This document shows, one piece after another, positions 2-45,530 of a stretch of DNA of 64,000 bases. Source of the DNA: Candidatus Multivorans sp. (lineage in GTDB: Bacteria; Acidobacteriota; Thermoanaerobaculia; Multivoradales; Multivoraceae). The DNA is taken from contig OZ242353.1 in the NCBI GenBank assembly GCA_965208755.1, forward strand, positions 1,427,772 through 1,491,771. Reading direction: 5' to 3'. The notes beneath the pieces were generated by a model, which was given only the letters and a program-made list of their open reading frames with translations, ran no database searches and had not been told where the DNA came from. Each line of letters opens with the position of its first letter. Position 1 is the first letter of the stretch. Made by a program: the position numbers and the translations under genes.

Positions 2-1261
2 CTCTCCACCTGGATGGGCCGCTGCCAACAGCCCATCCCGGCGAAGCCCAACGCGCGGCAGCCGACGTTGTTTCCTGCTTTCTGCGGATTCAACGAGAAC
101 GTCGGCTTCCGCGCACGCATATCACTAGAGGACGAGATCTCTAGGACCCTCCAGAGGAAGGAGATACAGGACGTCACCAAGATCCAAGGTTTCAACGAGC
201 GAGTTGCGGCCGCCGTCCGACTGTTCTCCCCTCACGCGAAGTTCCTCTGCCAGAACCGGAACGTCGATGTGGTCGTCTGCGTCATTCCCGACGAGCTTTA
301 CGACAGAATCTCAAAGAGGCACACCGCGCGTCCAGAAAAGCACTTGGAGAAGCCGGACGTCGACGACCTGATCGAGATGGATTTTCGGAGGGCTCTAAAG
401 GCCGAATGTCTCCACCTGGGTGTTCCACTACAACTGATCCGCTCCAAGTCCCTCCAACCCGATCCGCCTGGCCTGCAGGATGACGCGACGAGGGCATGGA
501 ACTTCTGCACGGCCCTCTACTACAAGGCGAACAGGACGGTACCGTGGCGACTCCCTCCCGATCCCAACATGCCGCGTACCTGCTACGCCGGCATCGGGTT
601 CTTCAGGAGCCGGGATGCCAAGGTGTTGCACACTAGCCTCGCTCAGATCTTTGACGAGCTCGGCAACAGCGTGATACTCCGTGGTACGCCCGTCGGCATC
701 GACAAGAGGGACCGACGGCCGTTCCTGCGAGGTGATCAGGCGGAGGAACTCCTCACAAGAGCGCTGGCGGAGTACAGGGATGCTCTGGGACACGCCCCGG
801 CGCGAATGGTGCTACATCGGACGTCGCGTATTCGAGCACAGGAGCTTGAGGGCTTCGAATCCGCTACGGCAGCGGCTGGTGTGTCCACTCTCGACTGCAT
901 CACGGTGCAGGACACGGATGTCAGGTTGTTCCGCCAGGGCCTTTATCCGCCTCATCGTGGCTCTATGGTCTCGCTGTCCAGCAACGAGCACCTGCTCTAC
1001 ACTCGCGGCTCGGTTGATTACTACAGGACTTACCCGGGCCTTTACGTGCCACAGCCGCTGAAGATTGTTACCGAGCACGCGGAGGCGTCTCCAAAGACGA
1101 TATGCGAGGAGCTCCTAGCGCTAACGAAGATGAACTGGAACAACACCCAGTTGGACGGGAAGCCTCCGATCACGGTTCATTGTGCCAGACAGGTCGGCCA
1201 GATCCTCAAGTATGTGGACGAGCACGAGAGGCCGCCGACCAGCTATAGCTACTATATGTAG
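2..1261 (+). CDS. Prokaryotic Argonaute (pAgo), MID-PIWI region; 5' end cut by the window edge; predicted catalytically inactive
   Basis: Reading frame is open back to nt 2. MID-like 'DVVVCVIPDELYDRISKR' and 'NFCTALYYKANRTVPWRL' (Ago MID/PIWI linker 'N.ALKIN.KLGG.PW'). PIWI-like 'RMVLHRTSRIRAQELEGF' (Ago 'RIIFYRDGVSEGQF'). C-terminal 'ELLALTKMNWNNT..PPITVHCARQVGQILKYV' matches the conserved Ago C-terminus. The position of the first catalytic Asp reads GIGFF instead of GxDV, and RDG is replaced by RTS. Confidence 0.65.
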   Translation, partial: LSTWMGRCQQPIPAKPNARQPTLFPAFCGFNENVGFRARISLEDEISRTLQRKEIQDVTKIQGFNERVAAAVRLFSPHAKFLCQNRNVDVVVCVIPDELYDRISKRHTARPEKHLEKPDVDDLIEMDFRRALKAECLHLGVPLQLIRSKSLQPDPPGLQDDATRAWNFCTALYYKANRTVPWRLPPDPNMPRTCYAGIGFFRSRDAKVLHTSLAQIFDELGNSVILRGTPVGIDKRDRRPFLRGDQAEELLTRALAEYRDALGHAPARMVLHRTSRIRAQELEGFESATAAAGVSTLDCITVQDTDVRLFRQGLYPPHRGSMVSLSSNEHLLYTRGSVDYYRTYPGLYVPQPLKIVTEHAEASPKTICEELLALTKMNWNNTQLDGKPPITVHCARQVGQILKYVDEHERPPTSYSYYM

Positions 1262-1697: not shown

Positions 1698-4600
1698 ATG
1701 TCACTCCAACAACAAGCGGTCTCCGACTTCGGACGTGAAGCCAAAGCCAAGCTCTCGAATCCGGTCGCGAGCGGCGCGCCGGAGGAACAGTTGCGCGCGC
1801 CGCTCAATATGCTCGTCAAGGATCTGGCCGGACTGCTGGGCCTGCGTCCAGAGGCAGTGGTCCTGGTTGGCGAGACATCGCTTGCCGACATCAGAACCCG
1901 GCCCGACTTCGCCGTCACCCGCGGTAACGCCCTGATCGGCTTCATCGAAGTCAAGGCGCCAGGGAAAGGCGCGGATCCCCGACGCTTCCGTGACGCGCAT
2001 GATCAAGAGCAGTGGGCAAAGCTCCAGTCTCTCCCGAACCTCATCTACACGGACGGCAACGGGTTCAGCCTCTGGCGGAATGGCGAGTTGGTGGAACAGG
2101 TCGTTCAGTTGGAAGGGGACGTGGCGACCTCCGGCGGACAGCTCTCCGCCCCCGACAACCTCTTGTCCGTCTTCGACAACTTCTTCCAGTGGGAGCCATT
2201 GCCGCCCCGTTCGGCCAAGGAGCTGGCCGGCACGACGGCCCGGCTATGTCGCTTGCTGCGCGAGGAGGTAACGGAACAGTTGGGCCGCGGTTCACCCTCG
2301 CTCACGAATCTCGCGACGGATTGGCGAAAGCTCCTTTTTCCGAGGGCCACGGATGAAGCCTTCGCCGACGGCTACGCCCAGGCTGTCACCTTCGGGCTCC
2401 TGATGGCGCGAGCGCGCGACATCAGGCTCGCCGAGGGTCTCGATCGAGTCGCCCGCGAGTTGCGCGACACCAATACGCTCATCGGTACAGCCCTCCGCAT
2501 CCTCACCGACGACGCCGACAATGAGATGGCGCTCAAGACCTCGCTCGCCACCCTGACGAGAGTGCTCGACGCAGTCGATTGGCTCACCGTCAGCAAGGGC
2601 GAACCGGAAGCCTGGCTGTACTTCTACGAGGACTTCCTGGGCGTGTACGACAACGAGCTTCGCAAGAAGACAGGCTCGTACTACACGCCGCCCGAAGTGG
2701 TCGCCGCGATGGTGCGGCTGGTCGACGAGGCCCTGTGCTCCGGGCAGCGCTTCGGTCTGCACGGCGGGCTCGCCTCCCCGGACGTGACCATCGCCGACCC
2801 GGCGACGGGGACCGGCACCTTCCTGCTCGGGGTTCTACGGCGCATCGCGCAGACGACCGCGGCCGACCAAGGGCCCGGTGGGCCGCCCGCCGTGGTCGAG
2901 GAGGCCGTATCCCGACTCATCGGATTCGAGATGCAGTTCGGTCCCTTCGCCGTGGCGCAACTCCGCCTCCTCGCGGAGTTGCGATCGCTCCTCGGTGACC
3001 CGGACGCGGTGCCCGAGACGCGGCTGTTCGTGACCGACACGCTTGGCAACCCCTATGCCGAGGAGGAGTACCTGCCGAACATCCTCACGCCCCTCGGCGA
3101 GTCTCGCCAGCGCGCAAATGCCATCAAGCGGGAGGAGGAGATTAGGGTCGTCATCGGCAATCCGCCTTACAAGGAAAAAGCGAAGGGACTCGGCGGCTGG
3201 ATCGAGAGCGGCTCGCCGGGCAGGGAGGCTGCCGCTCCCTTCCGCCAGTGGATGCCTCCGGTGGAGTGGAGGGTCGGCACCCATACGAAGCATCTGCGAA
3301 ACCTCTACGTCTACTTCTGGCGCTGGGCGACGTGGAAGGTCTTCGGTGACGCCAACCTGCCGGGCATTGAGGATCATGGGCCGAACCGCACCGAAGACGG
3401 CAACCGGTCACGGACAGAAGGCGCGCGGCCGACAGATCGTCGCGGCATCGTCTGCTTCATCACCGTGGCGGGCTTTCTGAACGGGCCCGGCTTTCAGAAG
3501 ATGCGGGCGGAGCTCCGCCGGGACGCGGACGAGATCTGGGTCATCGACTGCTCGCCGGAGGGGCATCAACCGGAAGTAAGGACTCGCATCTTCCAGGGTG
3601 TGCAGCAGCCGGTTTGCATCGTCATGGCGGTTCGCAGCACCGACGCGGGCTCGGTCGAACCGGCGCGAGTCCGCTACCGGTCTCTGCCGCCCGGACATCG
3701 AACCGAGAAGTTCGCGGCGCTTGGCCAGATTGCGCTCGACGACGACGGTTGGACTGAATCGCGGGCGGAACCCCGCGCCTCGTTCTTGCCCCAACCAGCC
3801 GGGACTTGGGGGGAGTTCGCGGCTCTGGAAGACCTGTTCGACTACGACGGCTCCGGCGTCATGCCCGGACGGACTTGGGTGATCGCTCCCGATCGCGACT
3901 CGTTGGAGCGACGCTGGAAGGCGCTGCAATCCGAAGCCGACACCGGAACCAAGGAGGCGCTCTTCTACCCGCATCCGCAAGGGGACAAGCACGTCCACAA
4001 GCCGTTGCGGCGGGGACTCCATGGCCACGAGTTTCGTTCTGGCCCAGTCGCCTCGGACACCGGAGCCGTGATCCCGCCGGTCCTCTACGGGCACCGCTCC
4101 TTTGATCGTCAGTGGATCATCCCGGATGGGCGGCTCATCAATCGGCCGAATCCGACCCTTTGGGGCTCTCAGTCCAACCGGCAGGTCTGGATGACGGCAC
4201 TACAGGCGCACACGATCTCTGCGGGGCCGGCTGTCACCTTCGCCGCGGCGATACCCGATCTGCACCACTACAACGGTCGGGGCGGTCGTGTGTTCCCTCT
4301 TTGGGCCGACCGCGATTGCCGGACGCCCAACCTCAAGGCTGGCCTGCTCCAGGAACTGGCCGATGTCCAGGGGGTTGCCGTCGGCGCCCCCGACCTCATG
4401 GCCTACTTCGCGGCGGTCGCGGCGCACCCCGCGTACACGGCGCACTTCCGCTCCGATCTAGTGCAGCCCGGCTTGCGGTTTCCATTGACCGCTGACGCCT
4501 CGCTATTCGCCGACGCAGTCGAGATCGGGCGAGAGATTGTCTGGCTCCACTGCTTCGGCGAGCGGTTCGCCGACGCCGATGCAGGACGACCCGACGGCCC

Positions 4601-5108
4601 GCCGCGCATGCCACAGCACGAGCGGCCCACTATCCCGGCGGAAGGCGCGATCTCTACCCACCCGGACCACTTCCCGGAACGCCTCGACTACATCGCCACA
4701 CTCCGCCGCCTGACGGTAGGCGACGGCTTCATCGACAACGTGCCGCCAGCGGTGTGGGAGTACGAAGTCTCGGGCAAACAGGTGCTCCCCCAATGGTTCA
4801 GCTACCGCCGGCGTGATCGCTCCCGGCCCCTCATCGGCGACCGGCGACCGCCGTCCGCGCTTGAGGAGGTCCAGGCCGACCGCTGGCTCGCTGAGTACAC
4901 CACGGAACTGATCAACGTACTGCATGTGCTCGGTCGTCTGGTCGCGCTCGAACTTCGACAGGCCGATCTTCTCGGCCGAATCTGCGACGGCCCCCTCTTG
5001 AGCGCCGACGATCTTCGGACCAACGGAGCCTTCGACGCGTCGGTCACGGTACGGCGCGGGCGCGCAAGCGAGGGGCAGGGGAGCCTCCTCGACCACCCGG
5101 ATACCTAG
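1698..5108 (+). CDS. Type IIG/IIL restriction-modification enzyme, MmeI-like: N-terminal PD-(D/E)xK nuclease fused to gamma-class N6-adenine methyltransferase and a C-terminal target-recognition region
   Basis: N-terminal 'RPDFAVTRGNALIGFIEVKAPGK' (D-x12-E-V-K, as in the MmeI nuclease domain); 'SYYTPPEVV'; methyltransferase motif I 'DPATGTGTFL' and motif IV 'NPPY' (Eco57I-type N6-MTase). 1136 aa. No brx or pglZ partners nearby, so it is not BREX PglX. Confidence 0.7.
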   Translation: MSLQQQAVSDFGREAKAKLSNPVASGAPEEQLRAPLNMLVKDLAGLLGLRPEAVVLVGETSLADIRTRPDFAVTRGNALIGFIEVKAPGKGADPRRFRDAHDQEQWAKLQSLPNLIYTDGNGFSLWRNGELVEQVVQLEGDVATSGGQLSAPDNLLSVFDNFFQWEPLPPRSAKELAGTTARLCRLLREEVTEQLGRGSPSLTNLATDWRKLLFPRATDEAFADGYAQAVTFGLLMARARDIRLAEGLDRVARELRDTNTLIGTALRILTDDADNEMALKTSLATLTRVLDAVDWLTVSKGEPEAWLYFYEDFLGVYDNELRKKTGSYYTPPEVVAAMVRLVDEALCSGQRFGLHGGLASPDVTIADPATGTGTFLLGVLRRIAQTTAADQGPGGPPAVVEEAVSRLIGFEMQFGPFAVAQLRLLAELRSLLGDPDAVPETRLFVTDTLGNPYAEEEYLPNILTPLGESRQRANAIKREEEIRVVIGNPPYKEKAKGLGGWIESGSPGREAAAPFRQWMPPVEWRVGTHTKHLRNLYVYFWRWATWKVFGDANLPGIEDHGPNRTEDGNRSRTEGARPTDRRGIVCFITVAGFLNGPGFQKMRAELRRDADEIWVIDCSPEGHQPEVRTRIFQGVQQPVCIVMAVRSTDAGSVEPARVRYRSLPPGHRTEKFAALGQIALDDDGWTESRAEPRASFLPQPAGTWGEFAALEDLFDYDGSGVMPGRTWVIAPDRDSLERRWKALQSEADTGTKEALFYPHPQGDKHVHKPLRRGLHGHEFRSGPVASDTGAVIPPVLYGHRSFDRQWIIPDGRLINRPNPTLWGSQSNRQVWMTALQAHTISAGPAVTFAAAIPDLHHYNGRGGRVFPLWADRDCRTPNLKAGLLQELADVQGVAVGAPDLMAYFAAVAAHPAYTAHFRSDLVQPGLRFPLTADASLFADAVEIGREIVWLHCFGERFADADAGRPDGPPRMPQHERPTIPAEGAISTHPDHFPERLDYIATLRRLTVGDGFIDNVPPAVWEYEVSGKQVLPQWFSYRRRDRSRPLIGDRRPPSALEEVQADRWLAEYTTELINVLHVLGRLVALELRQADLLGRICDGPLLSADDLRTNGAFDASVTVRRGRASEGQGSLLDHPDT

Positions 5109-5189
5109 ACAGTCGAACCGAATGCCAACCGGCCATGTGGCCGTACCCTGGCAGCCTGTGGTGGCGGGGAAGCCACTGAGAGCAACAGC

Positions 5190-5378
5190 TCAGGGGATCG
5201 ACTCGACCCCCAGATCCGCGCAGATCTTCCGCGCCAGTATCCGGTTGATCTCGGTATGCCGTGGAATGGCGCTACGGCGATCGTCGGCGCGGTTCCACCA
5301 CCAGGAGCGCCGTCGCCCTTCCCGCACCAGCTCGCGGCCCTGTCTTCGAAGATGGCGCAGAAGAGCTCTGCGCTTCAG
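5190..5378 (-). CDS. hicA: HicA-like mRNA interferase toxin (about 62 aa); no canonical start codon, CTG candidate
   Basis: Translation 'LKRRALLRHLRRQGRELVREGRRRSWWWNRADDRRSAIPRHTEINRILARKICADLGVESIP' fits the HicA/YcfA pattern (helix-G-basic-SWW-N, then ..IPRH..I....L). It overlaps the hicB stop by 4 nt. It is absent from the ORF track because there is no ATG/GTG/TTG after the upstream stop. Confidence 0.5.
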   Translation of the reverse strand: MKRRALLRHLRRQGRELVREGRRRSWWWNRADDRRSAIPRHTEINRILARKICADLGVESIP

Positions 5379-5590
5379 GTACCAACGACGACCTTCTCCA
5401 GCGTGTAGCCCTCACCCGCCGCGGCCAGCGCCGCCGCGCGATTGAACTCCAGCGCCTCGCTCAGAGTGATGGTCAATGTGTCCAGTAACTCCTCGCAGCT
5501 CCGTTCCTGGCAGTTCAGGCCCGGCACCTCCTCGATCCAACCGATCCACCAGTCACCGGCCCGCTTGACGATCGCGGTGTACTCCTGCAC
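5375..5590 (-). CDS. hicB: HicB-like antitoxin (UPF0150/HicB_lk family)
   Basis: 'YTAIVKRAGDWWIGWIEEVPGLNCQERSCEELLDTLTITLSEALEFNR' matches the small HicB fold proteins. GTG start at V22 of the listed ORF with an upstream 'GAGGAG..GGAGG'; alternative ATG starts exist at 5638 and 5653. Confidence 0.55.
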   Translation of the reverse strand: MQEYTAIVKRAGDWWIGWIEEVPGLNCQERSCEELLDTLTITLSEALEFNRAAALAAAGEGYTLEKVVVGT

Positions 5591-5858
5591 TTCCTCCGGC
5601 TCCTCTTGCGAAGACGTTCGTCGCAAGCACCCATGCATCCAGGCAGCCCGCAAAGCAGATTCTATCTCCGCGGCGGCCCTTGGCCGCTCCCATGAGGCCG
5701 TTCAGTTCGCTTGCGTCGTCTGCCAGGTAGAGGTAGCTTCCACGCAGATACCCGCCGGCAACGTGCTGTCGGCTCAAGGGCTGCTCTTCGGAGCAGCCCT
5801 TGCTGTTTCGGGCCTCGGGCTAGACTCTCGGCATCCAGTCGAAACAGGAGGACGCAGA

Positions 5859-6929
5859 ATGAGAGTCCGATTCACCGCGGCTTCGACCGCCATCCTCGTG
5901 CTGTTGCTCGCGGCGCCGGCCTTCGCGGCCGAAGGCGAGATCAAACGGGCCGCCAACGGCAAGCCCGACCTGACCGGCACCTATGACGCGGCCACCCTGA
6001 CGCCGCTCCAGCGGCCGGAGGAGTACGGCGAGAACCTGTACCTGACGCCGGAAGAGGCGGAGAAGATCGCGGCCGACGCGGCCAAAGGGCGCGCCGAACG
6101 CCACCAAGTCTCCGATCCGAACCGCGAAGCGCCGCCGGAGGGTGGAGACGGCTCACCCGGCGCGGCCGGCAACGTCGGCGGCTACAACAGCTTCTGGCTC
6201 GACCGGGGCACGGACACGTTCGCGGTGGACGGCAAGTTCCGCACCTCGATCATCATCGATCCGCCGAACGGCCGCATGCCGGAAACGACCGAGGCGGCGA
6301 AGGCGAGATTCGCGGAGCGCGCCAAGCTGCGGCGTCCGAACGAGGGCGTCGCCTGGTGGCTGGAGCTCGACGGCCCGGGCCCTTACGACGGCCCCGAGTC
6401 GCTGCCGATCAGCGAGCGCTGCATCCTCGGCTTCACCGGCGCCACGCCGACCTTCCCGAGCGGCTACAACAACTACAAGCGGGTCGTGCAGACCGAAGAC
6501 CACATCATGATCCTGATCGAGATGGTCCATGACGCCCGGATCATCCGTCTGAACGACGAGCACCCGAGTCCCGAGGAGCGGCGGTGGCTGGGCGATTCGG
6601 TCGGCTGGTGGGAAGGCGACACTCTGGTCATCGACTCGGTGCACTTCCGGCCCGACGGGTTCCTGCGCGGCGCGACCAAGGACCTCCACGTCACGGAGCG
6701 CCTGACGCTGCAGCCGGACGGCAACATCCTCTACCACTTCACGATGAACGATCCGGCCACCTGGGAAGCCCCCTGGTCCGGCGAGTACATCTGGAAGCGC
6801 GACCAGGAACGGGTCTACGAGTACGCCTGCCACGAGGGCAACTACTCGATGGGCGGCACGCTACGTGGCGCGCGCATCCTCGAGGACGACTGGCGCGCCG
6901 GCAAGGCGGCGAGCACCGGCGGCGAGTAG
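5859..6929 (+). CDS. Secreted hypothetical protein (signal peptide)
   Basis: ATG at 5859 preceded by AGGAG. N-terminus 'MRVRFTAASTAILVLLLAAPAFAAEG' is a signal peptide. The part of the listed ORF upstream overlaps hicB and is not coding. Confidence 0.55.
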   Translation: MRVRFTAASTAILVLLLAAPAFAAEGEIKRAANGKPDLTGTYDAATLTPLQRPEEYGENLYLTPEEAEKIAADAAKGRAERHQVSDPNREAPPEGGDGSPGAAGNVGGYNSFWLDRGTDTFAVDGKFRTSIIIDPPNGRMPETTEAAKARFAERAKLRRPNEGVAWWLELDGPGPYDGPESLPISERCILGFTGATPTFPSGYNNYKRVVQTEDHIMILIEMVHDARIIRLNDEHPSPEERRWLGDSVGWWEGDTLVIDSVHFRPDGFLRGATKDLHVTERLTLQPDGNILYHFTMNDPATWEAPWSGEYIWKRDQERVYEYACHEGNYSMGGTLRGARILEDDWRAGKAASTGGE

Positions 6930-6983
6930 CGGCCGGTAGGTGGCGTAGCACCGGCGGCGAGTAGCGGCCGGTAGGTGGCGTAG
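6914..6983. repeat. Perfect 35-bp tandem duplication (2 copies) spanning the stop codon of the upstream CDS
   Basis: 'caccggcggcgagtagcggccggtaggtggcgtag' occurs twice head-to-tail (6914-6948 and 6949-6983); a third partial copy 'caccc' follows. Confidence 0.8.
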
Positions 6984-7922: not shown

Positions 7923-10151
7923 CTACTCCTCCGGCCGGTAGGTGAGCCGCATCTCGGACAGGACGTTCTTGCCGCCGTCGGCGAGCAGTTCCTCACGGGC
8001 GAACCAGCTCGGCTTCATGGCGCCGACCGAGAACAGCTTCTCGGCCTGGTCGCGGTAGTGCGGCGAGTCCGGCCGGTCGCTCTGGCCGATCGGGGGCTGG
8101 GTGTAGCTGCGGATCGGGTTGCTGAGGATGACGACCTCGGTCGAGGTCTGGCCGCGGTTGCCCCAGCGGCGGCCGTCGGCGCGCGGCTGGCTGAATCCGA
8201 CGGAGCGCATGGTCGCCATTCCCGCTTCGCCGAGCGAGCCGCCGCCGACCGGCCAGGAGACTTCGTCGTTCGAGTCCTGGCGGCCGACCCTGAAGACGTC
8301 GCCAAAGACCGGACGCTGACCGCCCGGGCCTGACAGGTAGGCCTCCGCCGCGATGTCGACCGCCTCGACCAGCAACGGCAGGTCTTCGTCCCGCAGGCCG
8401 GGTGGTTCCGGCGCCTCGCGGAACAGCTCCAGGTAGTCGTTGACCCTCGATGTCATCTCGTTCATTCGTTCATCGCCGGCCAGGCCGCGCAGCGCCTCGC
8501 GCCACCGGAAGTGGGTGAGCGCGCCCCGGGAGTCGGGCTCGACGACGCCGTCCCACTGCAGGATCGGGCTCATCACGACCCCATGCTTCGGCGTGCGCCG
8601 GCCCGAAACCGCGGGCTGCGCACGTCTCAGCTCCTCGACCCAGCGCTCGAACTGGTAGACCGAACGGTTGAGCGCCAGTTCGACGATCTCTTCCTCGCTC
8701 CACTTGGCGCCGGCCTCCCGTTTCGCCTCGAGCAGCGCGACCGCGGCAGCGCCCCGTTGATGGGTGTAGAGCGCGGGCTGGTTGTAGAGATACGCGGGGT
8801 AGCGCTCCGGCACGAGCGGCGAATCGACCAGCATCGTGTCCGGGCCGATGTTGTTGTTCTGCATGTAGCCACGCTCGGGGTTGAGCAGGGACATCAGGTC
8901 GGACGCCGGGTGGATGCCCAGCCATTCGGTCTCGGAGGTCGATCCGTCGACGGGACGGCTCCAGTCATGGCCGTCCGGCCGGATCGGCACCCGGCCGGTC
9001 CGTTGGTAGTAGATGTTGCCGCCGGTGTCCGCGATCATCACGTTCTGCGGCATGATCTGGCGCACGTCCAGCGCCGCGGCCGCGCCCTCGTAGTCCTCCG
9101 CGACCATGAACCAGTACTTGGACTCGAGGTAGCCGATCTCGTCCTCGTAGGCGAGGGCCGCGGCGTAGGCGCGGTCGTCGTCGCGGGCGACGATCGGACC
9201 GTGGTGGGAGTACCAGAAGGTCGCCTCCCGCGGCTTCGCTTCGCCGGCGACCGAGACCTCGACCGTACGGCTCTCCAGTTGCCGCCACTCGCCGTCGTAG
9301 AGATAGCGGCTCGGGTCGTCCGGGTCGAGCGTCAACTCGTAAACGTCGGCCGTGTCCGGACCGCCGGTCGTGTGGGCCCACGCGACGTGCTCGTTGTGGC
9401 CCAGGTTGACGTACGGAAAGCCCGCCGTGGCGAAGCCGCTGATGTGGATGTCCCCGGCGTGGAGCCGCAGTTCCCAGTAGCGGTGGCGGCCGAGCCAGGA
9501 AAGGTGCGGGTCGATGATCAGAGCCGCCGCCCCGAACGTCGTCTGATCCGGCGCCAGCGCGATCTCGTTGGACGCCCGCAGGTCGACGTCGAAGTTCGGC
9601 TCGATGCCGACCGCCCGCAGGTCGGAGCGCGCCTGCCCCGCCGGCCAGCTCCAGATGAACTGGCGGCTGAAAGCGACCGGCATGTAGACGTCGACCGGGC
9701 GGTCGCCCCACCAGTCCGGCACCTCGTCGGGATGCGCTTCGAGGTAGTCGTTGATGCCCGCGATGAACGCCGCCAGGTGCCGGCGGAGCTCCGGGTTCAG
9801 CTTCGCCTCGTAGTGACGCTTCGCCGTGCCGTAGTGGTCCCACATCCGCGACTCGAGATCGGACCGCACCCAGGCGTCGTTGTTGCCGGGTCCGAAGGCG
9901 GCGGCGTACTCGCCGAGTCCGAAGAGGTAGTTCTCGAGCAGTTGCGACAGCCGGTCCTCCGCCATCGCCCAGCCGGAGGCGTAGAGACCGGCCTCGGCCG
10001 ACTCGGCGTAGATGTGGGGAACGCCCCAGGTGTCCCGGTAGACCGTCGCTTCCTCGCCGCCTCCGCCGGGCGGTCCGCAGGCCGCGACCAGCGCCAAGAG
10101 CGGCACGGTCAGAGTCGTCCCGAGCACCGGCCAGATGCCTCGCTTCTCCAC
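7923..10151 (-). CDS. Penicillin acylase family protein (Ntn-hydrolase; penicillin amidase or AHL acylase-like), lipoprotein
   Basis: 'ASNEIALAPDQT' (Ser nucleophile context as in 'SNMWVIG'); family-typical length (about 743 aa from GTG at 10151 preceded by AGGAGG); lipobox 'LLALVAAC'. The longer 956-aa ORF extension looks spurious. Confidence 0.7.
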   Translation of the reverse strand: MEKRGIWPVLGTTLTVPLLALVAACGPPGGGGEEATVYRDTWGVPHIYAESAEAGLYASGWAMAEDRLSQLLENYLFGLGEYAAAFGPGNNDAWVRSDLESRMWDHYGTAKRHYEAKLNPELRRHLAAFIAGINDYLEAHPDEVPDWWGDRPVDVYMPVAFSRQFIWSWPAGQARSDLRAVGIEPNFDVDLRASNEIALAPDQTTFGAAALIIDPHLSWLGRHRYWELRLHAGDIHISGFATAGFPYVNLGHNEHVAWAHTTGGPDTADVYELTLDPDDPSRYLYDGEWRQLESRTVEVSVAGEAKPREATFWYSHHGPIVARDDDRAYAAALAYEDEIGYLESKYWFMVAEDYEGAAAALDVRQIMPQNVMIADTGGNIYYQRTGRVPIRPDGHDWSRPVDGSTSETEWLGIHPASDLMSLLNPERGYMQNNNIGPDTMLVDSPLVPERYPAYLYNQPALYTHQRGAAAVALLEAKREAGAKWSEEEIVELALNRSVYQFERWVEELRRAQPAVSGRRTPKHGVVMSPILQWDGVVEPDSRGALTHFRWREALRGLAGDERMNEMTSRVNDYLELFREAPEPPGLRDEDLPLLVEAVDIAAEAYLSGPGGQRPVFGDVFRVGRQDSNDEVSWPVGGGSLGEAGMATMRSVGFSQPRADGRRWGNRGQTSTEVVILSNPIRSYTQPPIGQSDRPDSPHYRDQAEKLFSVGAMKPSWFAREELLADGGKNVLSEMRLTYRPEE

Positions 10152-37411: not shown

Positions 37412-39961
37412 ATGGCCCTGAAGAAGTCCCATCTCTACTCGTCCCTCTGGAAGAGCTGCGACGAACTCCGCGGCGGCATGGACGCCTCCCAGTACAAGGA
37501 CTACGTCCTGACGCTGCTGTTCATGAAGTACGTGTCCGACCGCTACGCCGACATGCCGGACGCGCTCGTCGTCGTGCCGGACGGCGGTGGCTTCGACGAC
37601 ATGATCGCCTGCAAGGGCGACAAGGAGATCGGGGATCGGCTGAACAAGATCATCGGCAGGCTCGCGGAGGCGAACGACCTGAAGGGAGTGATCGACCAGG
37701 CCGACTTCAACGACGAAGGCAAGCTCGGCGCAGGAAAGGAGATGGTCGACCGGCTCACGAAGCTGGTCGCGATCTTCGAGAACCTCGATCTGGGTGCCAA
37801 CCGGGCTGGGGGCGACGACCTACTCGGCGATGCCTACGAGTACTTGATGCGCCACTTCGCGACCGAGAGCGGGAAGAGCAAGGGTCAGTTCTACACCCCG
37901 GCCGAGGTCTCCCGCATCATGGCTCAGGTGATCGGCATCGGCCGCGCCCGCGAACGGCATCAGCCCACGGTCTTCGACCCGACCTGCGGCTCCGGCTCGC
38001 TCCTGCTCAAGGCCGCCGACGAGGCAGCCGTCGAAAACCTGGCGATCTACGGCCAAGAGAAGGACGTGGCGACCTGGGCCCTGGCGCGCATGAACATGAT
38101 CCTGCACGGGCACCCGACGGCCGAACTCGAACGCGGCAACACGCTCGCCGCTCCCGGATTCACGGACGACGCCGGGAACCTGAAGCGGTTCGACTTCGCC
38201 GTTGCGAATCCGCCATTCTCCGACAAGGCGTGGTCGAACGGCGTCCAGCTCGACGACGACCCCTTCCAACGCTTCGAGCCCGGCGTCCCTCCCGCAAAGA
38301 ACGGCGATTACGCCTATCTTCTGCACTTCATCCGGTCGCTCAGGACCGACGGGGCTGGCGCGATCATCCTCCCTCTTGGCGTCCTGTTCAGGGGGCATCG
38401 AGAAGCCGTCATCCGCCGGGTCCTCGTCCGTCGCGGCCTGATCTCCGGGATCATCGGCCTGCCGCCGAACCTCTTCTACGGCACCGGCATCCCCGCTTGC
38501 ATCGTGGTCATCGACAAGCAGAACGCGGCCGCGCGAACGGGCATCTTCCTCGTCGACGCGAGCCGGGGCTTCGCGAAGGACGGCGCGAAGAACCGCCTGC
38601 GCGAGCGCGACATTCACCGCATCGTAGACGTGTTCACGAACCGTCGCGAGGAGCCGCGCTACTCCCGAATGGTCCCGTTGGCCGAGATCGAGTCCGAGGC
38701 GAACGACTGCAACCTGAACATCTCCCGCTACATCGATTCGAGCAAGCCCGAGGACATCCATGACCTCGACGCCCACCTGAACGGCGGCATCCCGGAGCGG
38801 GACATCGACGCGCTCCAGCAGTACTGGAACGTCTTTCCGGGCCTCCGAGACGATCTCGTCGAGACCGTCGGACGACCAGACTACGTCCAACTGCGCGTCG
38901 CGCCAGAGAAGCTCCGCTCCGCCATCCTCGGCCACCGGGAGTACGAGAGCTTCGCCGAACGCGTCCGCGCCACCTTCGAGAGCTGGCGCGCGGCCCACGA
39001 GCCCGCGCTCAAGAGCATCGGCCCCGACACCCGCCCCGCGGATCTGATCCGCGACCTCTCCGAGGACGTGCTGACGAGGTTCGCCGACGTACCGTTGCTG
39101 GACCCGTACGACCCCTACCAGAGGCTGATGGACTACTGGGCCGAGGTCATGCAGGACGACGTCCACTTGATCGTCGCTGAAGGCTGGAAGAAGGCTGGCC
39201 GCGCGGTGCGTCTCGCAGAGAAGGGCGAGACCCCGGACCTGGCATTGAAGAACGGCCGGAAGACACTGAAGTACATCGCCGACCTGCTCCCCGCTTCGAT
39301 CCTAATCGCACGGTTCTTCCCCCCCCGAAGGTCCGAACTTGAGCTCCTTGAGGAGCGGCACGGTCAGGCGGAAGCCGAGCGCGCTGCGCTGGAGGAAGAA
39401 GAGGGCGGGGACGAGGGCGCTCTGGCTGGCCTTGAAGGCAAGAACGGCATCACCAAGGGGAACGTGCAGAATCGCGTCATGGTTCTTCGCGACGCGGCTC
39501 TGAAGTCGTTCGCGCTCGGGACGAGCCGCTACCGGCAGGCCGCCGCCATCAGAAAGACGACGTTCGGCACCAAGCCCTGGACGCGCGGAACCGAGGACCC
39601 GGATGGGCTGTTCAGGGAGCTCGACGCGCTACACGATTGGCTCCGGCACCACGCGGCAGAGACGAAGCTCAAGAAGGACCTGGGCGCGAGGCGAACAGAA
39701 CTCCAGAGCGCAACGTACTCAAGGTACGCCAGCCTGACCATGGGCGAAGTTAGGAGCCTGACCGTCCAAGACAAGTGGCTGAACAGTCTTCGCACCTGTG
39801 TCGATGTCGAGGTGGAAGCGATGTCCGGTCTACTCGCCGATCGCCTTGAACAACTGGCGAGCCGCTACGCAGAGCCTCTGCCGATGGTTGAACTCGACAC
39901 CGAAACCCTGGCCACCAAAGTCGGAGGTCATCTGACGCGGATGGGCCTGACGTGGGAGTGA
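37412..39961 (+). CDS. hsdM: Type I restriction-modification system methyltransferase subunit (long form)
   Basis: HsdM N-terminal domain 'LWKSCDELRG..YKDYVLTLLFMKYVSD'; motif I 'DPTCGSGSLL'; motif IV 'NPPF'. Confidence 0.85.
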   Translation: MALKKSHLYSSLWKSCDELRGGMDASQYKDYVLTLLFMKYVSDRYADMPDALVVVPDGGGFDDMIACKGDKEIGDRLNKIIGRLAEANDLKGVIDQADFNDEGKLGAGKEMVDRLTKLVAIFENLDLGANRAGGDDLLGDAYEYLMRHFATESGKSKGQFYTPAEVSRIMAQVIGIGRARERHQPTVFDPTCGSGSLLLKAADEAAVENLAIYGQEKDVATWALARMNMILHGHPTAELERGNTLAAPGFTDDAGNLKRFDFAVANPPFSDKAWSNGVQLDDDPFQRFEPGVPPAKNGDYAYLLHFIRSLRTDGAGAIILPLGVLFRGHREAVIRRVLVRRGLISGIIGLPPNLFYGTGIPACIVVIDKQNAAARTGIFLVDASRGFAKDGAKNRLRERDIHRIVDVFTNRREEPRYSRMVPLAEIESEANDCNLNISRYIDSSKPEDIHDLDAHLNGGIPERDIDALQQYWNVFPGLRDDLVETVGRPDYVQLRVAPEKLRSAILGHREYESFAERVRATFESWRAAHEPALKSIGPDTRPADLIRDLSEDVLTRFADVPLLDPYDPYQRLMDYWAEVMQDDVHLIVAEGWKKAGRAVRLAEKGETPDLALKNGRKTLKYIADLLPASILIARFFPPRRSELELLEERHGQAEAERAALEEEEGGDEGALAGLEGKNGITKGNVQNRVMVLRDAALKSFALGTSRYRQAAAIRKTTFGTKPWTRGTEDPDGLFRELDALHDWLRHHAAETKLKKDLGARRTELQSATYSRYASLTMGEVRSLTVQDKWLNSLRTCVDVEVEAMSGLLADRLEQLASRYAEPLPMVELDTETLATKVGGHLTRMGLTWE

Positions 39962-41178
39962 ACACGCCCCTAGGATGGCTGCTAGAACCAGTGGAGACGA
40001 AGGGCGATGTCACCACAGGCAAGGCGCTAGCCGCAAGAGCGCCCGGCAAGCAGCGCCCTTACCTGCGCACGAAGAACGTGTTCGACGGTCGTATCGTCAC
40101 CAACGACGTTCTGACGATGCCGATGACCGACGCCGAGTTCGAGCGCTATCGCGTCCTTCCTGGGGACGTTCTCCTCAACGAGGGACAGAGCCTCGAACTG
40201 GTCGGTCGTTGTGCGGTGTATCGGGACGAGAACGCGAAACCCTGTGCGATGCAGAATCAGCTGCTCCGCTTTCGCGCGCGGCCCGGTGTTTCCGCCGAGT
40301 TCGCTGCACATCTGTTTCGCTACTCGCAGCAGGAGGGTACGTTCGCCCGTATAGCCCTCCAAACAACATCTATCGCCCACCTTGGCGCGACACGCCTGGA
40401 GAAGCTGAAGCTACTCTGGCCTGAGCGGGAGGCCGAACAAGACGCCATCGCCGAGGCGCTCTGCGACATGGATCTGTTGATCGAGTCGCTGGCGACACTA
40501 ATCGCCAAAAAGCGGTCGGTCCGGCGCGGCGTCATGCAGCAGCTCTTCACCGGCCGGACTCGGCTTCCAGGGTTCGACGGAGCGTGGGAGTCAAGGCACG
40601 TCGGCGAACTCGCCGCAGTTTCGATGGGGCAATCGCCTCCTTCGACGTCATACAACACGGTCGGAGACGGACTTCCCCTCATTCAAGGAAAAGCCGATCT
40701 GGTCGGGCACACAACGTCTGCCCAGGTATGGACCACTCGCCCCGCCAAGCGCTGCTCGGAAGGCACCATCGTTCTGACGGTGCGGGCGCCTGTAGGCGCT
40801 GTCGCACGCGCACACGCCGAGGTTTGCCTAGGACGGGGCGTGTGTGGATTGAGCACTACTCTAGGGACGAGATTCCTGTACCTAGCGCTACAGCACGCCG
40901 AGTCGCGGTGGGCGAAAGTCCAGCAGGGAAGCACATTCCTTGCGGCAAATGCAGACCAAATCGCAGGCTTCGCCATCGATGTTCCGGCTGACCCCGCCGA
41001 GAGAACGGCCATCGCCGAAGTCCTCTCCGACATGGATAGCGAGCTCGAATCCCTGGAACAGCGTCTCGCGAAGACCCGCGCGATCAAGCAGGGCGCGATG
41101 CAACAACTCCTCACCGGCCGCATCCGGCTGCCACTCGACAGCGAGGGCCGTCACGACAAGGGCCACGCAGATGCCTGA
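39952..41178 (+). CDS. hsdS: Type I RM specificity subunit
   Basis: Two target-recognition domains separated by conserved coiled-coil repeats 'AIAEALCDMDLLIESLATLIAKKR..QQLFTGRTRLPGF' and 'AIAEVLSDMDSELESLEQRLAKTRAIKQGAMQQLLTGRIRLP'. Confidence 0.8.
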   Translation: MGVNTPLGWLLEPVETKGDVTTGKALAARAPGKQRPYLRTKNVFDGRIVTNDVLTMPMTDAEFERYRVLPGDVLLNEGQSLELVGRCAVYRDENAKPCAMQNQLLRFRARPGVSAEFAAHLFRYSQQEGTFARIALQTTSIAHLGATRLEKLKLLWPEREAEQDAIAEALCDMDLLIESLATLIAKKRSVRRGVMQQLFTGRTRLPGFDGAWESRHVGELAAVSMGQSPPSTSYNTVGDGLPLIQGKADLVGHTTSAQVWTTRPAKRCSEGTIVLTVRAPVGAVARAHAEVCLGRGVCGLSTTLGTRFLYLALQHAESRWAKVQQGSTFLAANADQIAGFAIDVPADPAERTAIAEVLSDMDSELESLEQRLAKTRAIKQGAMQQLLTGRIRLPLDSEGRHDKGHADA

Positions 41179-42586
41179 GTCCCAGACCAGGGAGTGGAAG
41201 CGATCCTGGCGAGACGAACACCTGAAGTGGATCTGCGGCTTCGCGAACGCCCAGGGCGGCGTGCTCGAGATCGGCAAGGATGATCGGGGCGAGGTCGTCG
41301 GCCTCAAGGAACCGCTCAGACTGCTTGAGGACATCCCGAACAAGGTCCAGTCCCTGCTCGGTATCGTCGCGGAAGTCGATCTGAGGTCGAAGTCGGGCAA
41401 GGAGTACCTGGAGATCGTGGTGGACCCTCACCCAAACCCGATCAGCTATCGGGGCGAGTTCCACTATCGCAGCGGCAGCACGAAGCAGGTTCTTCGGGGC
41501 GTAGCGCTGAGCCGCTTTCTGTTGCAGCGTTACGGGCGGACCTGGGACGACGTTCCGTCACCCGGCGTGGCGCTTGGCGACCTGGACGCGCGGAAACTGG
41601 AGGACTATCGCCGGCTGGGCGCAGGCAGCCAACGGTTGCCAGACAGCATCCTGCAGGACACCGACGACGCTGTGATCGACAAGCTCCAGTTGCGGGAAGC
41701 CGAGCTCCTGAAGCGGGCCGCGATCCTCCTTTTTCATCCGGCGCCCCAGCGATTCGTGGTGGATGCCTACGTCAAGATCGGCTACTTCCGGGGCTCGGAA
41801 CTTCTGTTCCAGGACGTCGTGGATGGCGACCTGTTTGGTCAGGTCGACCGGACGATGGACCTCCTTTACACGAAGTACACGCGGGGGCTGATCTCCTACA
41901 ACGGCATCTACCGCGTCGAGACGTTCCCGGTGCCGCGCGAGGCCATGAGGGAGGCGCTGATCAACGCCGTGATCCACCGCGACTACGCTAGGCCAACCAC
42001 GATTCAGATTCGCGTGTACGACGATCGGATCGCGATCTGGAACGCGGTCGACCTGCCTCCCGAGTGGGGCGAGAGCCAGCTCGCCCGGAAGCTGTCGTCG
42101 AAGCCGCACAACCCGCGCATCGCCTACTCGTTCTTCAGGGCCGGGTTGATCGAAGCATGGGGCCGAGGCATCGAGCGGATTCTCGATCTGTGTGAGGAGG
42201 CAGGGAACCCACAGCCTGTCTGGGAACTGGAACCAGGAGGCGAGGGTCTGTGGTTGAGATTCCCGTTTTCGGCGGCGTACCGGGCCGCCGACACTGCGAA
42301 CCGCGCAGCAACCAGTGAAACTCGCCCAGACGGCGAGACTGCCCCGATCGCTACCCCGACTACCCCGGCCACTACCCCGACTACCCCGGCCACTACCCCG
42401 ATGTCCGCGAGAGAGGGCATCCTGGCCTTGTTGAAAACCGATCCGCAGTTGACCCAGCGCGAACTCGCCGAACGAGTGGGCCTGACAAGGAACGGGGTCA
42501 AGTACCACATCAAAGTGCTGAAGGCCGCCGGCCTCATCCGCCGGATTGGCTCGTCGACGGCGGGTCGATGGGACGTGCTGAAGTGA
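41171..42586 (+). CDS. AlbA_2 (divergent AAA) + HATPase_c_4-like + C-terminal wHTH protein (RecG-like putative transcriptional regulator) embedded in the RM operon
   Basis: N-terminal 'REWKRSW..E.LKWICGFANAQGGVLEIGKDD' (AlbA_2); C-terminal 'LLKTDPQLTQRELAERVGLTRNGVKYHIKVLKAAGLIRR' HTH; Thr/Pro repeat linker. Confidence 0.6.
   Translation: MPESQTREWKRSWRDEHLKWICGFANAQGGVLEIGKDDRGEVVGLKEPLRLLEDIPNKVQSLLGIVAEVDLRSKSGKEYLEIVVDPHPNPISYRGEFHYRSGSTKQVLRGVALSRFLLQRYGRTWDDVPSPGVALGDLDARKLEDYRRLGAGSQRLPDSILQDTDDAVIDKLQLREAELLKRAAILLFHPAPQRFVVDAYVKIGYFRGSELLFQDVVDGDLFGQVDRTMDLLYTKYTRGLISYNGIYRVETFPVPREAMREALINAVIHRDYARPTTIQIRVYDDRIAIWNAVDLPPEWGESQLARKLSSKPHNPRIAYSFFRAGLIEAWGRGIERILDLCEEAGNPQPVWELEPGGEGLWLRFPFSAAYRAADTANRAATSETRPDGETAPIATPTTPATTPTTPATTPMSAREGILALLKTDPQLTQRELAERVGLTRNGVKYHIKVLKAAGLIRRIGSSTAGRWDVLK
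42351..42400. repeat. 21-bp tandem repeat (about 2.4 copies) encoding a P-T-T-P-A-T-T-P linker
   Basis: 'ctaccccgactaccccggcca' x2 plus a partial copy, inside the AlbA_2/HTH gene. Confidence 0.7.
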
Positions 42587-42608
42587 GACCCGCAGGGCTT
42601 CCAGCGAA

Positions 42609-44253
42609 ATGACCTCCGTCGGCCAGCGGGAAAGCCGTACCCAGAAGCGCGTGATCGTCCGCCTCCAGGCTCTCGGCTACGAGTACCTGGGCCACTGGAA
42701 GAACCGCGAGGCCAACGCGAACGTCGAAGAAGACCGCCTACGGGCCTGGCTCGCGAATCGACACCTGACGGACGGGCTCGCGGGGAAAGCGCTCGAGAAA
42801 CTCCGCGGGGCCGCGGAGTTCGGAGGCGCTCGGACGCTCTACGAAGCGAACCGCGAGGTCTACAACCTCCTCAGGTACGGAGTAAAGGTCAGGCCGGAAG
42901 TCGGCGAGAACCACGAGACGGTCTGGCTGATCGACTGGGAGAATCCCGATCGCAACGACTTCGCCGTCGCCGAGGAAGTGACGGTCACCGGGAAGCGGAA
43001 CAAGCGGCCGGACATCGTGTTCTACGTGAACGGCATCGCCCTCGCCGTCATGGAACTCAAGCGGTCCACGGTTTCCGTAGCCGAGGGGATCAGGCAGAAC
43101 CTGGACAGCCAGAAGAAGGAGTTCATCCAGCACTTCTTCTCCACGGTGCAGCTCGTGCTGGCTGGAAACGAGACGGAGGGCCTCCGTTACGCCGCGATCG
43201 GTACCCCCGAGAAGCAGTGGCTGCGCTGGAAGGAGGCCGGGGCGGCGCCGTCGGCAGGGTACAACCCCTTGCCCGAGGAACTGGGTCAACTCTGCAGCAA
43301 GCGACGACTCCTGGAAGTGATCCACGACTTCGTCGTCTTCGACGCCGGGACGAAGAAGATCTGCCGCCCCAACCAGTACTTCGGCGTGAAGGCGTCCCAA
43401 GAGCGGATTCTGAAGCGCGAGGGCGGCATTCTCTGGCACACGCAGGGCAGTGGCAAGAGCCTGACGATGGTGTGGCTGGCGAAGTGGATACGGGAGAACG
43501 TGGGAGATTCCCGCGTTCTCATCGTTACCGATCGCAAGGAGCTCGACGAGCAGATCGAGATGGTCTTCGAGGGAGTCAACGAGCACATCCGGCGAACGAC
43601 AAGCGGCGCCGACCTAGTCAAGGTCCTGGACGCGGGAGTGGACGACCTGGCCTGCTCGCTGGTCCACAAGTTCGGGGCTTCGGAGGAAGGCGACGTCGGC
43701 CGCTACCAGGACGAGCTTGAAGAACACGTGCCGGCGGGCTTCAACCCGCCGGGCACGTTCTTCGTCTTCGTCGACGAGTGCCACCGCACCCAGTCCGGCA
43801 AGCTGCACGCCGCGATGAAGAAGCTGCTGCCCGGCGCCACTCTCATCGGCTTCACGGGCACCCCGCTTCTCAGGGCGGACAAGCGACGCTCAATCGAGAC
43901 ATTCGGCCCCTACATCCACACCTACAAGTACGACGAAGCTGTGCAAGACGGCGTAGTGCTGGACCTGCGCTACGAAGCGCGCGACATCGATCAGCGGATC
44001 TCCGCGCCGGAGAAGGTCGATCAGTGGTTCGAGGCGCACACGCGCGAACTAACGGACGTGGCCAAGGCCCAGCTCAAGCAACGTTGGGGCACGATGCAGG
44101 CGCTGCGGTCCGCAAGAGATCGGCTAGGGAAGATCGTCGCGGACATCCTCATGGACATGGGAACCCGGGACCGCTTGAAGAGCGGTCGCGGAAACGTCCT
44201 GCTTGTCTCCGACAGCATCTACTCGGCCTGTCGGTTCTTCGAGATGTTCGAAC
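42609..44253 (+). pseudogene. hsdR: hsdR (type I restriction enzyme R subunit), N-terminal fragment, interrupted by IS4-family insertion
   Basis: PD-(D/E)xK 'DIVFYVNGIALAVMELKRS'; helicase motif I 'TQGSGKS'; motif II 'DECHR'. The open frame runs into the IS inverted repeat and stops at 44279. Confidence 0.8.
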
Positions 44254-45530
44254 CACTGCTGTCCCACAAACCGGGTTGAGAAAAGGGCCTGAGTCGTCCG
44301 GTGCTGTAAGGTTGGTCTTGGTCGAAAGTCCAACTACAGCAAGGAGATCCAGGCTCATGGCGCATCATAACACCGTGCTCGGACAGTTGCTCAGGCTGGT
44401 GTCGAGACATGAGTTCGAGCGGGACGCCCGGAGGCATCACAAGGGGAGGAAGCTCCGTTCCATGAGCCGGTGGAGCCAGTTCGCGGCGATGGCGATGGCG
44501 CAGTTGTCGGGGCGGTGCAGCCTGCGGGACGTCGTCTCGAATCTGGAAGCCCAGAGACGGAAGCTCTACCATCTCGGCGTCGGTCGGGTCGCGCGGTCCT
44601 CTCTGGCGCGGGTGAACGAGGAGCAGCCTCACGAGCTCTTCGAGTTGCAGTTCAAGCGCCTTCTGGACCGCTGCCGAGGCTTGGCGCCCGGCCACGGGTT
44701 CCGGTTCAAGAATCCGCTCGTGTCCCTGGACGCGACGTACATCGACCTGTGCCTCTCGTTGTTTCCCTGGGCGAAGTACGGCAAGAGCAAAGGGGCGATC
44801 AAGGTCCACGTCGGTCTCGACCACGGCGGGAATCTGCCGTCCTTCCTGAGCGTGACGGACGGGAAGGGGTCCGACATCGACGTGGCGCGGACGCTGCGCT
44901 TGCCAGTGGGGAGCATCGTCGCCGCGGACCGGTTGTACCAGGACTTCAGTTGGTTGAGATCCCTTGACGAGCAAGGGGTTTTCCTGGTCACGCGGCTCAA
45001 GCGGGGAGTCCGGTACGCGGTGCGGGAGCGCCGCTCGTACGCGCCCGGCCGCGGCGTGACCTCGGACCAGCTGATCGAGCTGACGAGCAGGAAGGGCCGG
45101 AAGGACTGCCCGATTCCGCTGCGGAGGGTCGGCTATCGCGACGCCGCGACCGGCAAGCACTACGTGTTCCTCACCAACAACTTCGCGCTCGCGCCGAGGA
45201 CCATCGCGGACATCTACAAGGCGCGCTGGCAGGTCGAGCTCTTCTTCAAGTGGATCAAGCATAACCTCCGGATCAAGAGCTTCCTCGGCACTTCCCGCAA
45301 CGCCGTGCTGACGCAGATCTGGATCGCCATGTGCGTCCACCTCCTCCTCGCCTACCTGAAATTCTCCAATCGCCTCAAGTGGACGCTCAGCGAGATCCTC
45401 CGTCTGCTCCAACTGAATCTCTTCGAACGACGCCCACTCAATGACCTGTTACAGACACAACGCGACCCGCCGCGCCCGAGAAACGATCAACTGCAACTCG
45501 CCCTGCCCTGAAGTTTGTGGGACAGCAGTG
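44254..45530 (+). mobile_element. IS4-family insertion sequence (1277 bp) with 18-bp perfect terminal inverted repeats and 9-bp target-site duplication
   Basis: Left inverted repeat 'cactgctgtcccacaaac' (44254-44271) equals the reverse complement of 45513-45530. Direct repeats 'tgttcgaac' at 44245-44253 and 45531-45539. Confidence 0.8.
44357..45511 (+). CDS. IS4-family DDE transposase
   Basis: 384 aa; ATG preceded by AAGGAG; C-terminal 'YKARWQVELFFKWIKHNL' (Y-x2-R-x3-E-x6-K signature of the IS4 family). Confidence 0.8.
   Translation: MAHHNTVLGQLLRLVSRHEFERDARRHHKGRKLRSMSRWSQFAAMAMAQLSGRCSLRDVVSNLEAQRRKLYHLGVGRVARSSLARVNEEQPHELFELQFKRLLDRCRGLAPGHGFRFKNPLVSLDATYIDLCLSLFPWAKYGKSKGAIKVHVGLDHGGNLPSFLSVTDGKGSDIDVARTLRLPVGSIVAADRLYQDFSWLRSLDEQGVFLVTRLKRGVRYAVRERRSYAPGRGVTSDQLIELTSRKGRKDCPIPLRRVGYRDAATGKHYVFLTNNFALAPRTIADIYKARWQVELFFKWIKHNLRIKSFLGTSRNAVLTQIWIAMCVHLLLAYLKFSNRLKWTLSEILRLLQLNLFERRPLNDLLQTQRDPPRPRNDQLQLALP

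Follow-up and report, generated by a model that had tools for sequence, protein, structure and literature searches.

A short Argonaute with a predicted inactive PIWI domain in Candidatus Multivorans sp. and its probable SMEK-APAZ partner

To what kind of defence system does an Argonaute gene belong when its start, and with it any upstream partner, lies beyond the edge of the sequence at hand? The question is raised by a stretch of 64,000 nucleotides (nt) from Candidatus Multivorans sp. (GenBank assembly GCA_965208755.1, contig OZ242353.1, positions 1,427,772 to 1,491,771 of the forward strand), here called the window, which opens inside a prokaryotic Argonaute (pAgo) gene at nt 2-1261. An initial annotation, made from the letters alone, had read this gene as the MID and PIWI domains of a nuclease-dead pAgo of the short or long-B type, the kind of protein that normally acts with a co-encoded effector. 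The visible part of the gene encodes a short pAgo. We put at roughly 85% the probability that it belongs to the S2B clade and that its clade partner is an upstream protein joining SMEK, a Mrr-like PD-(D/E)xK nuclease domain, to an APAZ domain, which would make the system one of the SPARMA type.

An Argonaute of the short type

The gene lies on the + strand in frame 2, with 419 open codons (2-1258) closed by a TAG stop at 1259-1261. Alignment places its first codon at about residue 56 of homologues of 474 amino acids (aa), so that about 55 codons (some 165 nt) precede the window, in keeping with the initial view that the N-terminus lies outside it; the frame's ATG at nt 14 is an internal codon. 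On the evidence of the open frame, the profile match to PADLOC pAgo_I and the homologues, nt 2-1261 are the 3' part of a short pAgo gene, comprising 419 of about 474 codons and the stop, or about 88% of the whole.

Profiles, solved structures and a predicted fold all lead to the same family. The fragment matches PADLOC pAgo_I (PDLC02376) with E = 9.2e-155 and spans profile positions 55-455 of 455, while 15 further PADLOC pAgo models also match. A search of Pfam-A, including the Piwi model PF02171 that had been proposed as a check, gave no match to the fragment, which says little, as the family is too diverged for this model; the sole NCBIfam match was an Argonaute model, below threshold. The best sequence matches in the PDB are the Argonaute chains of SPARDA systems (9qbl and 9qbp at 7e-81 and 2e-79, 9jsb at 3e-66), followed by the SPARHA chain 9om4 (6e-61), SPARTA chains (about 1e-26 to 1e-29) and SPARSA (5e-16); the long Argonautes AaAgo, CbAgo and RsAgo reach just 1e-3. 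An AlphaFold (AF2) model of the fragment, built on a multiple sequence alignment of 126 diverse homologues, has a predicted local distance difference test score (pLDDT) of 92.7 and a predicted template-modelling score of 0.90. An earlier model from an alignment of 25 sequences was poor (pLDDT 63) and was left unused. When the better model was compared with the PDB by Foldseek, the top matches were all short-pAgo chains, with template-modelling (TM) scores of 0.84-0.90 for SPARDA and SPARHA and 0.72-0.83 for SPARTA. Identity over the structural alignments is 29-36% to the SPARDA and SPARHA Argonautes and 22-25% to those of SPARTA.

The claimed homology to Argonaute MID and PIWI is thus borne out by profile, by PDB sequence match and by predicted fold (short-pAgo chains at TM 0.8-0.9). 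Nucleotides 2-1261 encode the MID and PIWI domains of a short prokaryotic Argonaute. By hhalign to the MID domain of TtAgo, the AF2 model and Foldseek, MID occupies nt 2-556 (about residues 1-185, its N-terminal edge outside the window). PIWI, an RNase H fold from which the catalytic residues appear to be missing, occupies nt 557-1258 (about residues 186-419; hhalign probability 98.4%, AF2 and Foldseek), and its modelled secondary structure runs in the order beta1-beta2-beta3-alpha1-beta4.

The choice between short and long-B, left undecided by the initial annotation, can now be narrowed to short. The family is large, with 1,711 representative clusters (50% identity) matching at E ≤ 1e-3 and 273 at ≤ 1e-30. 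The closest homologous proteins (73-81% identical) each have 474 aa, and all homologues at 48-81% identity have 472-480 aa. Among the matches listed, the genomes that come nearest belong to Gemmatimonadota and Longimicrobiales metagenome-assembled genomes (MAGs), whose pAgos are 77% and 75% identical to this one. Because homologues have about 474 aa, only about 55 residues fall outside the window and the frame upstream in relatives is a separate gene, the protein is assigned to the short type. An architecture of MID and PIWI only is also what the match to the 455-position short-pAgo profile from position 55 describes. In a long-B protein, N, L1 and L2, with or without PAZ, would stand on the same chain; judged on relatives, the N/L1/L2-like APAZ is instead a separate upstream protein. 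The long-A combination of an intact DEDX tetrad with N-L1-PAZ-L2 was not found either.

There are no stops or frameshifts over the 419 codons, and every invariant residue of the 126-sequence family alignment is kept. The ratio of nonsynonymous to synonymous substitution (dN/dS) is 0.07-0.10 by the Nei-Gojobori method against the three closest usable relatives, with synonymous sites close to saturation. Such a ratio means strong purifying selection on the gene, which is judged functional on that ground. Its GC content is 59.6% (0.75 at third codon positions, GC3), against 67% for the whole window and about 71% (GC3 about 0.92) for clearly chromosomal or housekeeping genes. This low GC relative to the rest of the window indicates that the gene was probably acquired horizontally.

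Catalytic and guide-binding positions

Whether the PIWI domain could cut was read against TtAgo, whose sequence was taken from plasmid pTT27 and on which D478, E512, D546 and D660 were confirmed. The TtAgo-family profile holds 15 Thermaceae sequences from a TtAgo protein search, with all four residues conserved, and is adequate but narrow; a tblastn search of plasmids for long pAgos added little diversity. Against it, the 126-sequence short-pAgo profile aligns by hhalign across MID and PIWI with a probability of 98.4% and E = 5e-15.

The third position is the most constant. TtAgo D546 falls on T274 in every comparison run ('LLLRDGR' against 'VLHRTSR'), so that R-T-S (R273-T274-S275, nt 818-826) replaces RDG, just as had been read by eye. 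The fourth, TtAgo D660 (H807 in hAgo2), falls on R396 (nt 1187-1189) or on a gap just past A395 ('PAPLHLAD' against 'PITVHCA-R'), which places R396 at or beside the site. The glutamate finger, TtAgo E512, falls approximately on P240 (nt 719-721), within a conserved loop of the form D-R-x-P-H-L. At the first position, hhalign sets 'AVGF--DAG' against 'YAGIGFFRS' with TtAgo G476 opposite G197, and D478 would correspond to G199 in the ungapped register of motif and strand or to F201 in the gapped version given by hhalign. Strand beta1 ('TCYAGIGFFR', residues 193-202) holds no Asp or Glu under either register, so the earlier reading of this site as G-I-G-F-F (G197-F201, nt 590-604; placed by hhalign and AF2) holds.

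A shallow profile of 25 sequences, aligned with TtAgo alone or with its family, had set beta1 opposite TtAgo beta2 with large gaps and was confident only from alpha1 on. That placement was rejected on topology, since three strands separate alpha1 from the last MID helix in either protein, and it was corrected by the 126-sequence profile.

The same residues recur through the family. Among the 126 sequences, column 199 is S, G or A, with D in two; column 240 is P in 103, with V, A, I, L and Y as minor variants; column 274 is T or S, with K, A, V or W in about six; and column 396 is R or K in 101 and D or E in 10. All four RNase H catalytic positions of the window protein are thus read as non-acidic, as the initial annotation had proposed, and the domain is predicted to be catalytically dead. 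As these substitutions run through the 126-member family, the loss appears ancestral to the clade rather than peculiar to this copy.

The guide-binding site, by comparison, is predicted to be intact. R129 (nt 386-388), K133 (398-400), Q144 (431-433) and K175 (524-526) align one-to-one by hhalign with TtAgo R418, K422, Q433 and K457 and outline a 5'-phosphate guide pocket of the RK type over nt 386-526, in agreement with the [Y/H/R]-K-Q-K pocket motif. K133 is invariant among the 126 sequences, Q144 and K175 are each found in 125, and position 129 is R or H. At the other end of the chain, the tail Y-S-Y-Y-M (nt 1244-1258) follows the family consensus Y-x-[FY]-Y-M of the same 126 relatives. Argonautes use their terminal carboxylate to complete the 5'-phosphate/Mg2+ site of MID. 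Both the MID pocket and the conserved tail had been pointed out from the letters, and both stand up to this comparison. A MID pocket of the RK type has been described for S2B short pAgos (bioRxiv 10.1101/2023.06.08.544223).

The upstream partner and the type of system

The partner was sought in relatives. The 81 related loci that were fetched were surveyed by tblastn. Of these, 78 have DNA upstream of the pAgo, and in 77 a SMEK-APAZ homologue is the immediate upstream neighbour on the same strand, with an alignment that covers the SMEK domain in most; they include the closest relative (L085, pAgo 81% identical), L083 and L084 (78%), L001, and L002 and L081. In all five of the closest relatives (75-81% identity) the upstream protein matches Pfam PF21941 (SMEK_N), and in close relatives it is a separate open reading frame (ORF) whose stop lies 0-4 nt into the start-codon region of the pAgo. 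The partner in L081, for instance, has 482 aa, its stop overlaps the pAgo start, and it matches SMEK_N at 7.8e-35 and PADLOC Aga_REase-PNTD1-PNTD2 at 2.8e-123. In the PDB, its N-terminal domain matches the solved Mrr domain of the Kordia jejudonensis Mrr-APAZ protein (26bh_D, 5.5e-15), and its C-terminal half matches DREN-APAZ and HNH-APAZ chains over their APAZ parts. The DREN domain (DUF4365) does not show up in this relative, as the match to DREN-APAZ is confined to the APAZ half, residues 188-463.

By analogy with these loci, a SMEK-APAZ gene would be expected a short way upstream of the window, its stop codon overlapping the start of the pAgo gene. Pairwise identity supports the grouping, being 48-81% to SMEK-partnered pAgos against 29-36% to SPARDA and SPARHA and 22-25% to SPARTA. 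Relatives bear out the expectation of a co-encoded effector, in the form of a SMEK/Mrr-like PD-(D/E)xK domain fused to APAZ, neither SIR2 nor TIR. Published work on the S2B clade describes Mrr-like (SMEK) effectors, PIWI domains without the tetrad and exchange of effector domains (bioRxiv 10.1101/2023.06.08.544223); the name SPARMA and a predicted filament come from work on the Kje system (bioRxiv 10.1101/2025.04.08.647717). For the Kordia pair alone, PMC12205087 and PMC10810196 cite work in vitro in which the heterodimer shows RNA-guided nuclease activity that depends on a DNA target.

The related loci show some variety of their own. In L083 (1-9425) and L084 (1-6563) the pair sits in an integrative mobilisable element with a tyrosine integrase, AlpA, and MobC/NikA-like and MbeD-like proteins, and an N6_N4 methyltransferase gene lies downstream of the pAgo pair. 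The partner calls of these two loci differ (454 and 558 aa), yet their pAgo proteins are identical. In L012, L013, L018, L025, L038, L044 and L071, mostly from Bacteroidota, the partner aligns over query residues of about 180-470 only.

Several points weigh against the assignment to SPARMA. The partner gene and the first 55 or so codons of the pAgo lie upstream of the window, and the system type is read entirely from relatives. About nine of the 77 related loci align over the APAZ half alone, and their N-terminal effector would be either very diverged or of another type; on account of these loci, the effector domain can plausibly be swapped within this pAgo clade. In one Promineifilaceae MAG (L015, 1-10000), tblastn found no partner homologue in 9.8 kb of upstream DNA, and its pAgo may be an orphan or may have a different partner. 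The collateral activity of SPARMA has been reported as weak, its activation by filaments is a model-based prediction only, and in the literature searched there are no in vivo defence data for any SPARMA system. Within the pAgo itself, the positions of the first Asp and of the glutamate finger come from a lower-confidence stretch of the alignment, which makes G199 and P240 best estimates.

Among the alternatives, the one that survives best pairs a short pAgo from this clade with some other effector-APAZ protein (DREN/DUF4365, HNH, TIR or SIR2), in a SPARDA, SPARHA or similar system, and we consider it improbable. The best solved-structure matches are indeed the Argonaute subunits of SPARDA and SPARHA, but the PDB holds no SPARMA Argonaute structure, so the top rank of SPARDA reflects what has been solved, and identity to those chains falls well short of that to SMEK-partnered pAgos (29-36% against 48-81%). 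Exchange of effectors within S2B and the loci aligning over the APAZ half also speak for such a system; against it, the closest relative shares the flanking Type IIG gene described below and has a SMEK_N partner. It is more improbable still that pAgo, SMEK-APAZ and Type IIG enzyme form one co-inherited functional unit, or that the pAgo pairs with an undescribed type of partner; the pairing of pAgo and Type IIG gene is seen in two genomes, with a difference of 24% between the DNA sequences of their pAgo genes.

At the bottom of the scale stand two readings that concern the gene itself. A long-B pAgo, or a one-chain fusion of effector, APAZ and pAgo with its N-terminal domains in frame upstream of the window, is suggested by a frame that is open up to the first base, by fused forms in the wider family (such as P0235, 981 aa, 37% identical, matching at 557-981) and by a match to PADLOC Aga_SIR2-PNTD1-PNTD2 at E = 7e-31, but is highly improbable given that the fragment aligns from residue 56 or so of 474-aa proteins, that none of the homologues at 48-81% identity exceeds 480 aa and that the upstream gene is a separate ORF in every close relative. 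An orphan or decaying, non-functional pAgo without a partner would agree with a partner unseen in the window, with the locus in L015 and with another defence gene of the window, HsdR, having been broken by an insertion sequence (IS), but it is no more credible than the fusion in view of the intact 419 codons, the low dN/dS and the retention of all invariant residues.

The SPARMA assignment can also be set beside the known systems. Its founding example, KjAgo with Mrr(SMEK)-APAZ of Kordia jejudonensis, is likened to the window gene by its description as a short MID-PIWI protein with a dead PIWI; the partners of the window gene's relatives likewise carry a SMEK/Mrr N-domain (matching the Kj Mrr domain, PDB 26bh) followed by APAZ, with the partner upstream and the pAgo downstream. 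The host phylum differs, Kordia being one of the Bacteroidota and the relatives of the window pAgo coming from Gemmatimonadota and Longimicrobiales MAGs. SPARDA (DREN/DUF4365-APAZ; Nba, Xau, Eae, Tmu) offers the closest solved pAgo structures (E = 7e-81, TM 0.86-0.90) and shares the S2B clade, the RK-type MID, the dead PIWI, homologous APAZ halves and probably a way of sensing DNA with an RNA guide so as to set off a collateral nuclease. Its effector is however DUF4365, of Hjc-like topology, rather than SMEK/Mrr, and the pAgos are only about 30-36% identical in the structural alignments; published work places SPARDA in a different short-pAgo branch. SPARHA (HNH-APAZ; 9om4) has a related Argonaute subunit (E = 6e-61, TM 0.84) and an effector that is also a nuclease, switched on in its case by target-induced filaments, but that nuclease is of the HNH kind. 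SPARTA and SPARSA (TIR-APAZ or SIR2-APAZ; E from 1e-29 to 5e-16) share a dead short pAgo, an APAZ effector and the logic of abortive infection, yet their effectors are NADases and they belong to clades S2A and S1, with 22-25% identity. The long-A TtAgo and CbAgo share the MID and PIWI folds, the C-terminal carboxylate tail and a 5'-phosphate pocket that reads R-K-Q-K just as it does in TtAgo, whereas the window protein lacks N, L1, PAZ and L2 and has G, P, T and R in place of DEDD.

From KjAgo, SPARDA and SPARHA a mechanism can be proposed by analogy. The pAgo and its partner would make up a heterodimer, with APAZ standing in for the N/L1/L2 lobe that the pAgo lacks, and the guide loaded by the pAgo would be a small RNA with a 5'-phosphate. 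Once this guide had paired with complementary DNA of an invader, the complex would change, probably by assembling into oligomers or filaments, and the changed complex would switch on the SMEK/Mrr nuclease for non-specific degradation of DNA. The nuclease could then stop the spread of a plasmid or phage at the cost of the infected cell, providing immunity at the level of the population. PIWI would serve as a sensor scaffold in such a complex and not as the nuclease.

Genomic setting and significance

Downstream of the pAgo, on the same strand, lies a gene for a Type IIG restriction-modification (RM) enzyme of 1,136 aa (1698-5108; PADLOC PDLC03631, E = 0; Pfam N6_Mtase and Type_ISP_C). The 436-nt spacer between the two (1262-1697) was searched for promoter-like and terminator-like sites and none was found, nor does the spacer show similarity to relatives. 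In the closest relative (L085) the order is SMEK-APAZ, pAgo (81% aa identity), Type IIG gene (84% aa identity), and because the same Type IIG gene there directly follows the pAgo, the two defence systems are taken to travel together. It is conceivable, if improbable, that they cooperate, with targeting by the Argonaute fed or licensed, for instance, by restriction fragments or by invader DNA that lacks methylation.

The right-hand neighbour is a signal-peptide protein of 356 aa (MRVRFTAASTAILVLLLAAPAFA..., 5859-6929, + strand); the ORF called at 5442-6929 (orf495) is too long upstream. This uncharacterised family has more than 7,000 matches, no Pfam domain, and tandem arrays in ordinary chromosomal contexts. 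A homologue upstream of SMEK-APAZ in L085 had raised orf495 as a candidate, either for a third gene of the system or for a flanking IS, and it was rejected as both, being a member of a signal-peptide family in ordinary chromosomal tandem arrays. The 356-aa gene is instead read as marking the chromosomal flank of an islet. A related genome that is free of the islet (L086) is collinear with the window over positions 5755-5808 and 5809-6939, and to the left of the islet in L085 stands a paralogue of the secreted protein. On these two grounds, SMEK-APAZ (the partner by inference), pAgo and Type IIG gene are interpreted as a low-GC accessory islet of about 8-9 kb inserted between tandem paralogues, with its right edge at or before nt 5755. 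In the place of the islet, L086 carries (9436-9887, against window positions of about 5109-5808) a gene matching Pfam HicA_toxin and a small unannotated ORF, possibly a toxin-antitoxin pair. Such alternative contents suggest that the intergenic spot between the secreted-protein paralogues may be a hotspot for accessory or defence genes. A further call, orf107 (5122-5445, + strand, 107 codons), follows the Type IIG gene and looks coupled to it in translation, but was discarded as probably no gene, being Arg/Pro/Ser-rich and off-frame-like, with a low GC3 of 0.67 and no family match.

A second low-GC defence island, at 37412-47726, carries a Type I RM system. It comprises HsdM (37412-39961), an HsdS-like ORF (39952-41178), a protein with Schlafen/AlbA_2, HATPase_c_4 and winged helix-turn-helix domains (40940-42586), the N-terminal part of HsdR (42609-44279; HSDR_N, SWI2_SNF2, ResIII), an IS4-family transposase gene (43778-45511; DUF4372 and DDE_Tnp_1), the C-terminal part of HsdR (45515-46987; T1R_D3-like) and a YgjP-like metallopeptidase (46977-47726). 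An ISL3-family transposase gene on the - strand (48209-49474) stands at the edge of this island. Because the IS4-family transposase gene splits HsdR (42609-46987), the restriction subunit is probably inactivated.

Taken together, the pAgo of the window is one more example, of the Gemmatimonadota type, of a known and widespread class (the 1,711 clusters mentioned above), and nothing in its visible part departs from its family. Its islet with a Type IIG gene between secreted-protein paralogues is a tidy and unsurprising instance of a defence islet. Of the SPARMA systems, the solved structures are limited to the Mrr domain (PDB 26bh), and the only in vitro work cited in the literature searched is the single study of Kim et al. 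2020 (BBRC). The gene would add to SMEK/Mrr-APAZ, the least studied branch of the nuclease-linked short Argonaute systems.

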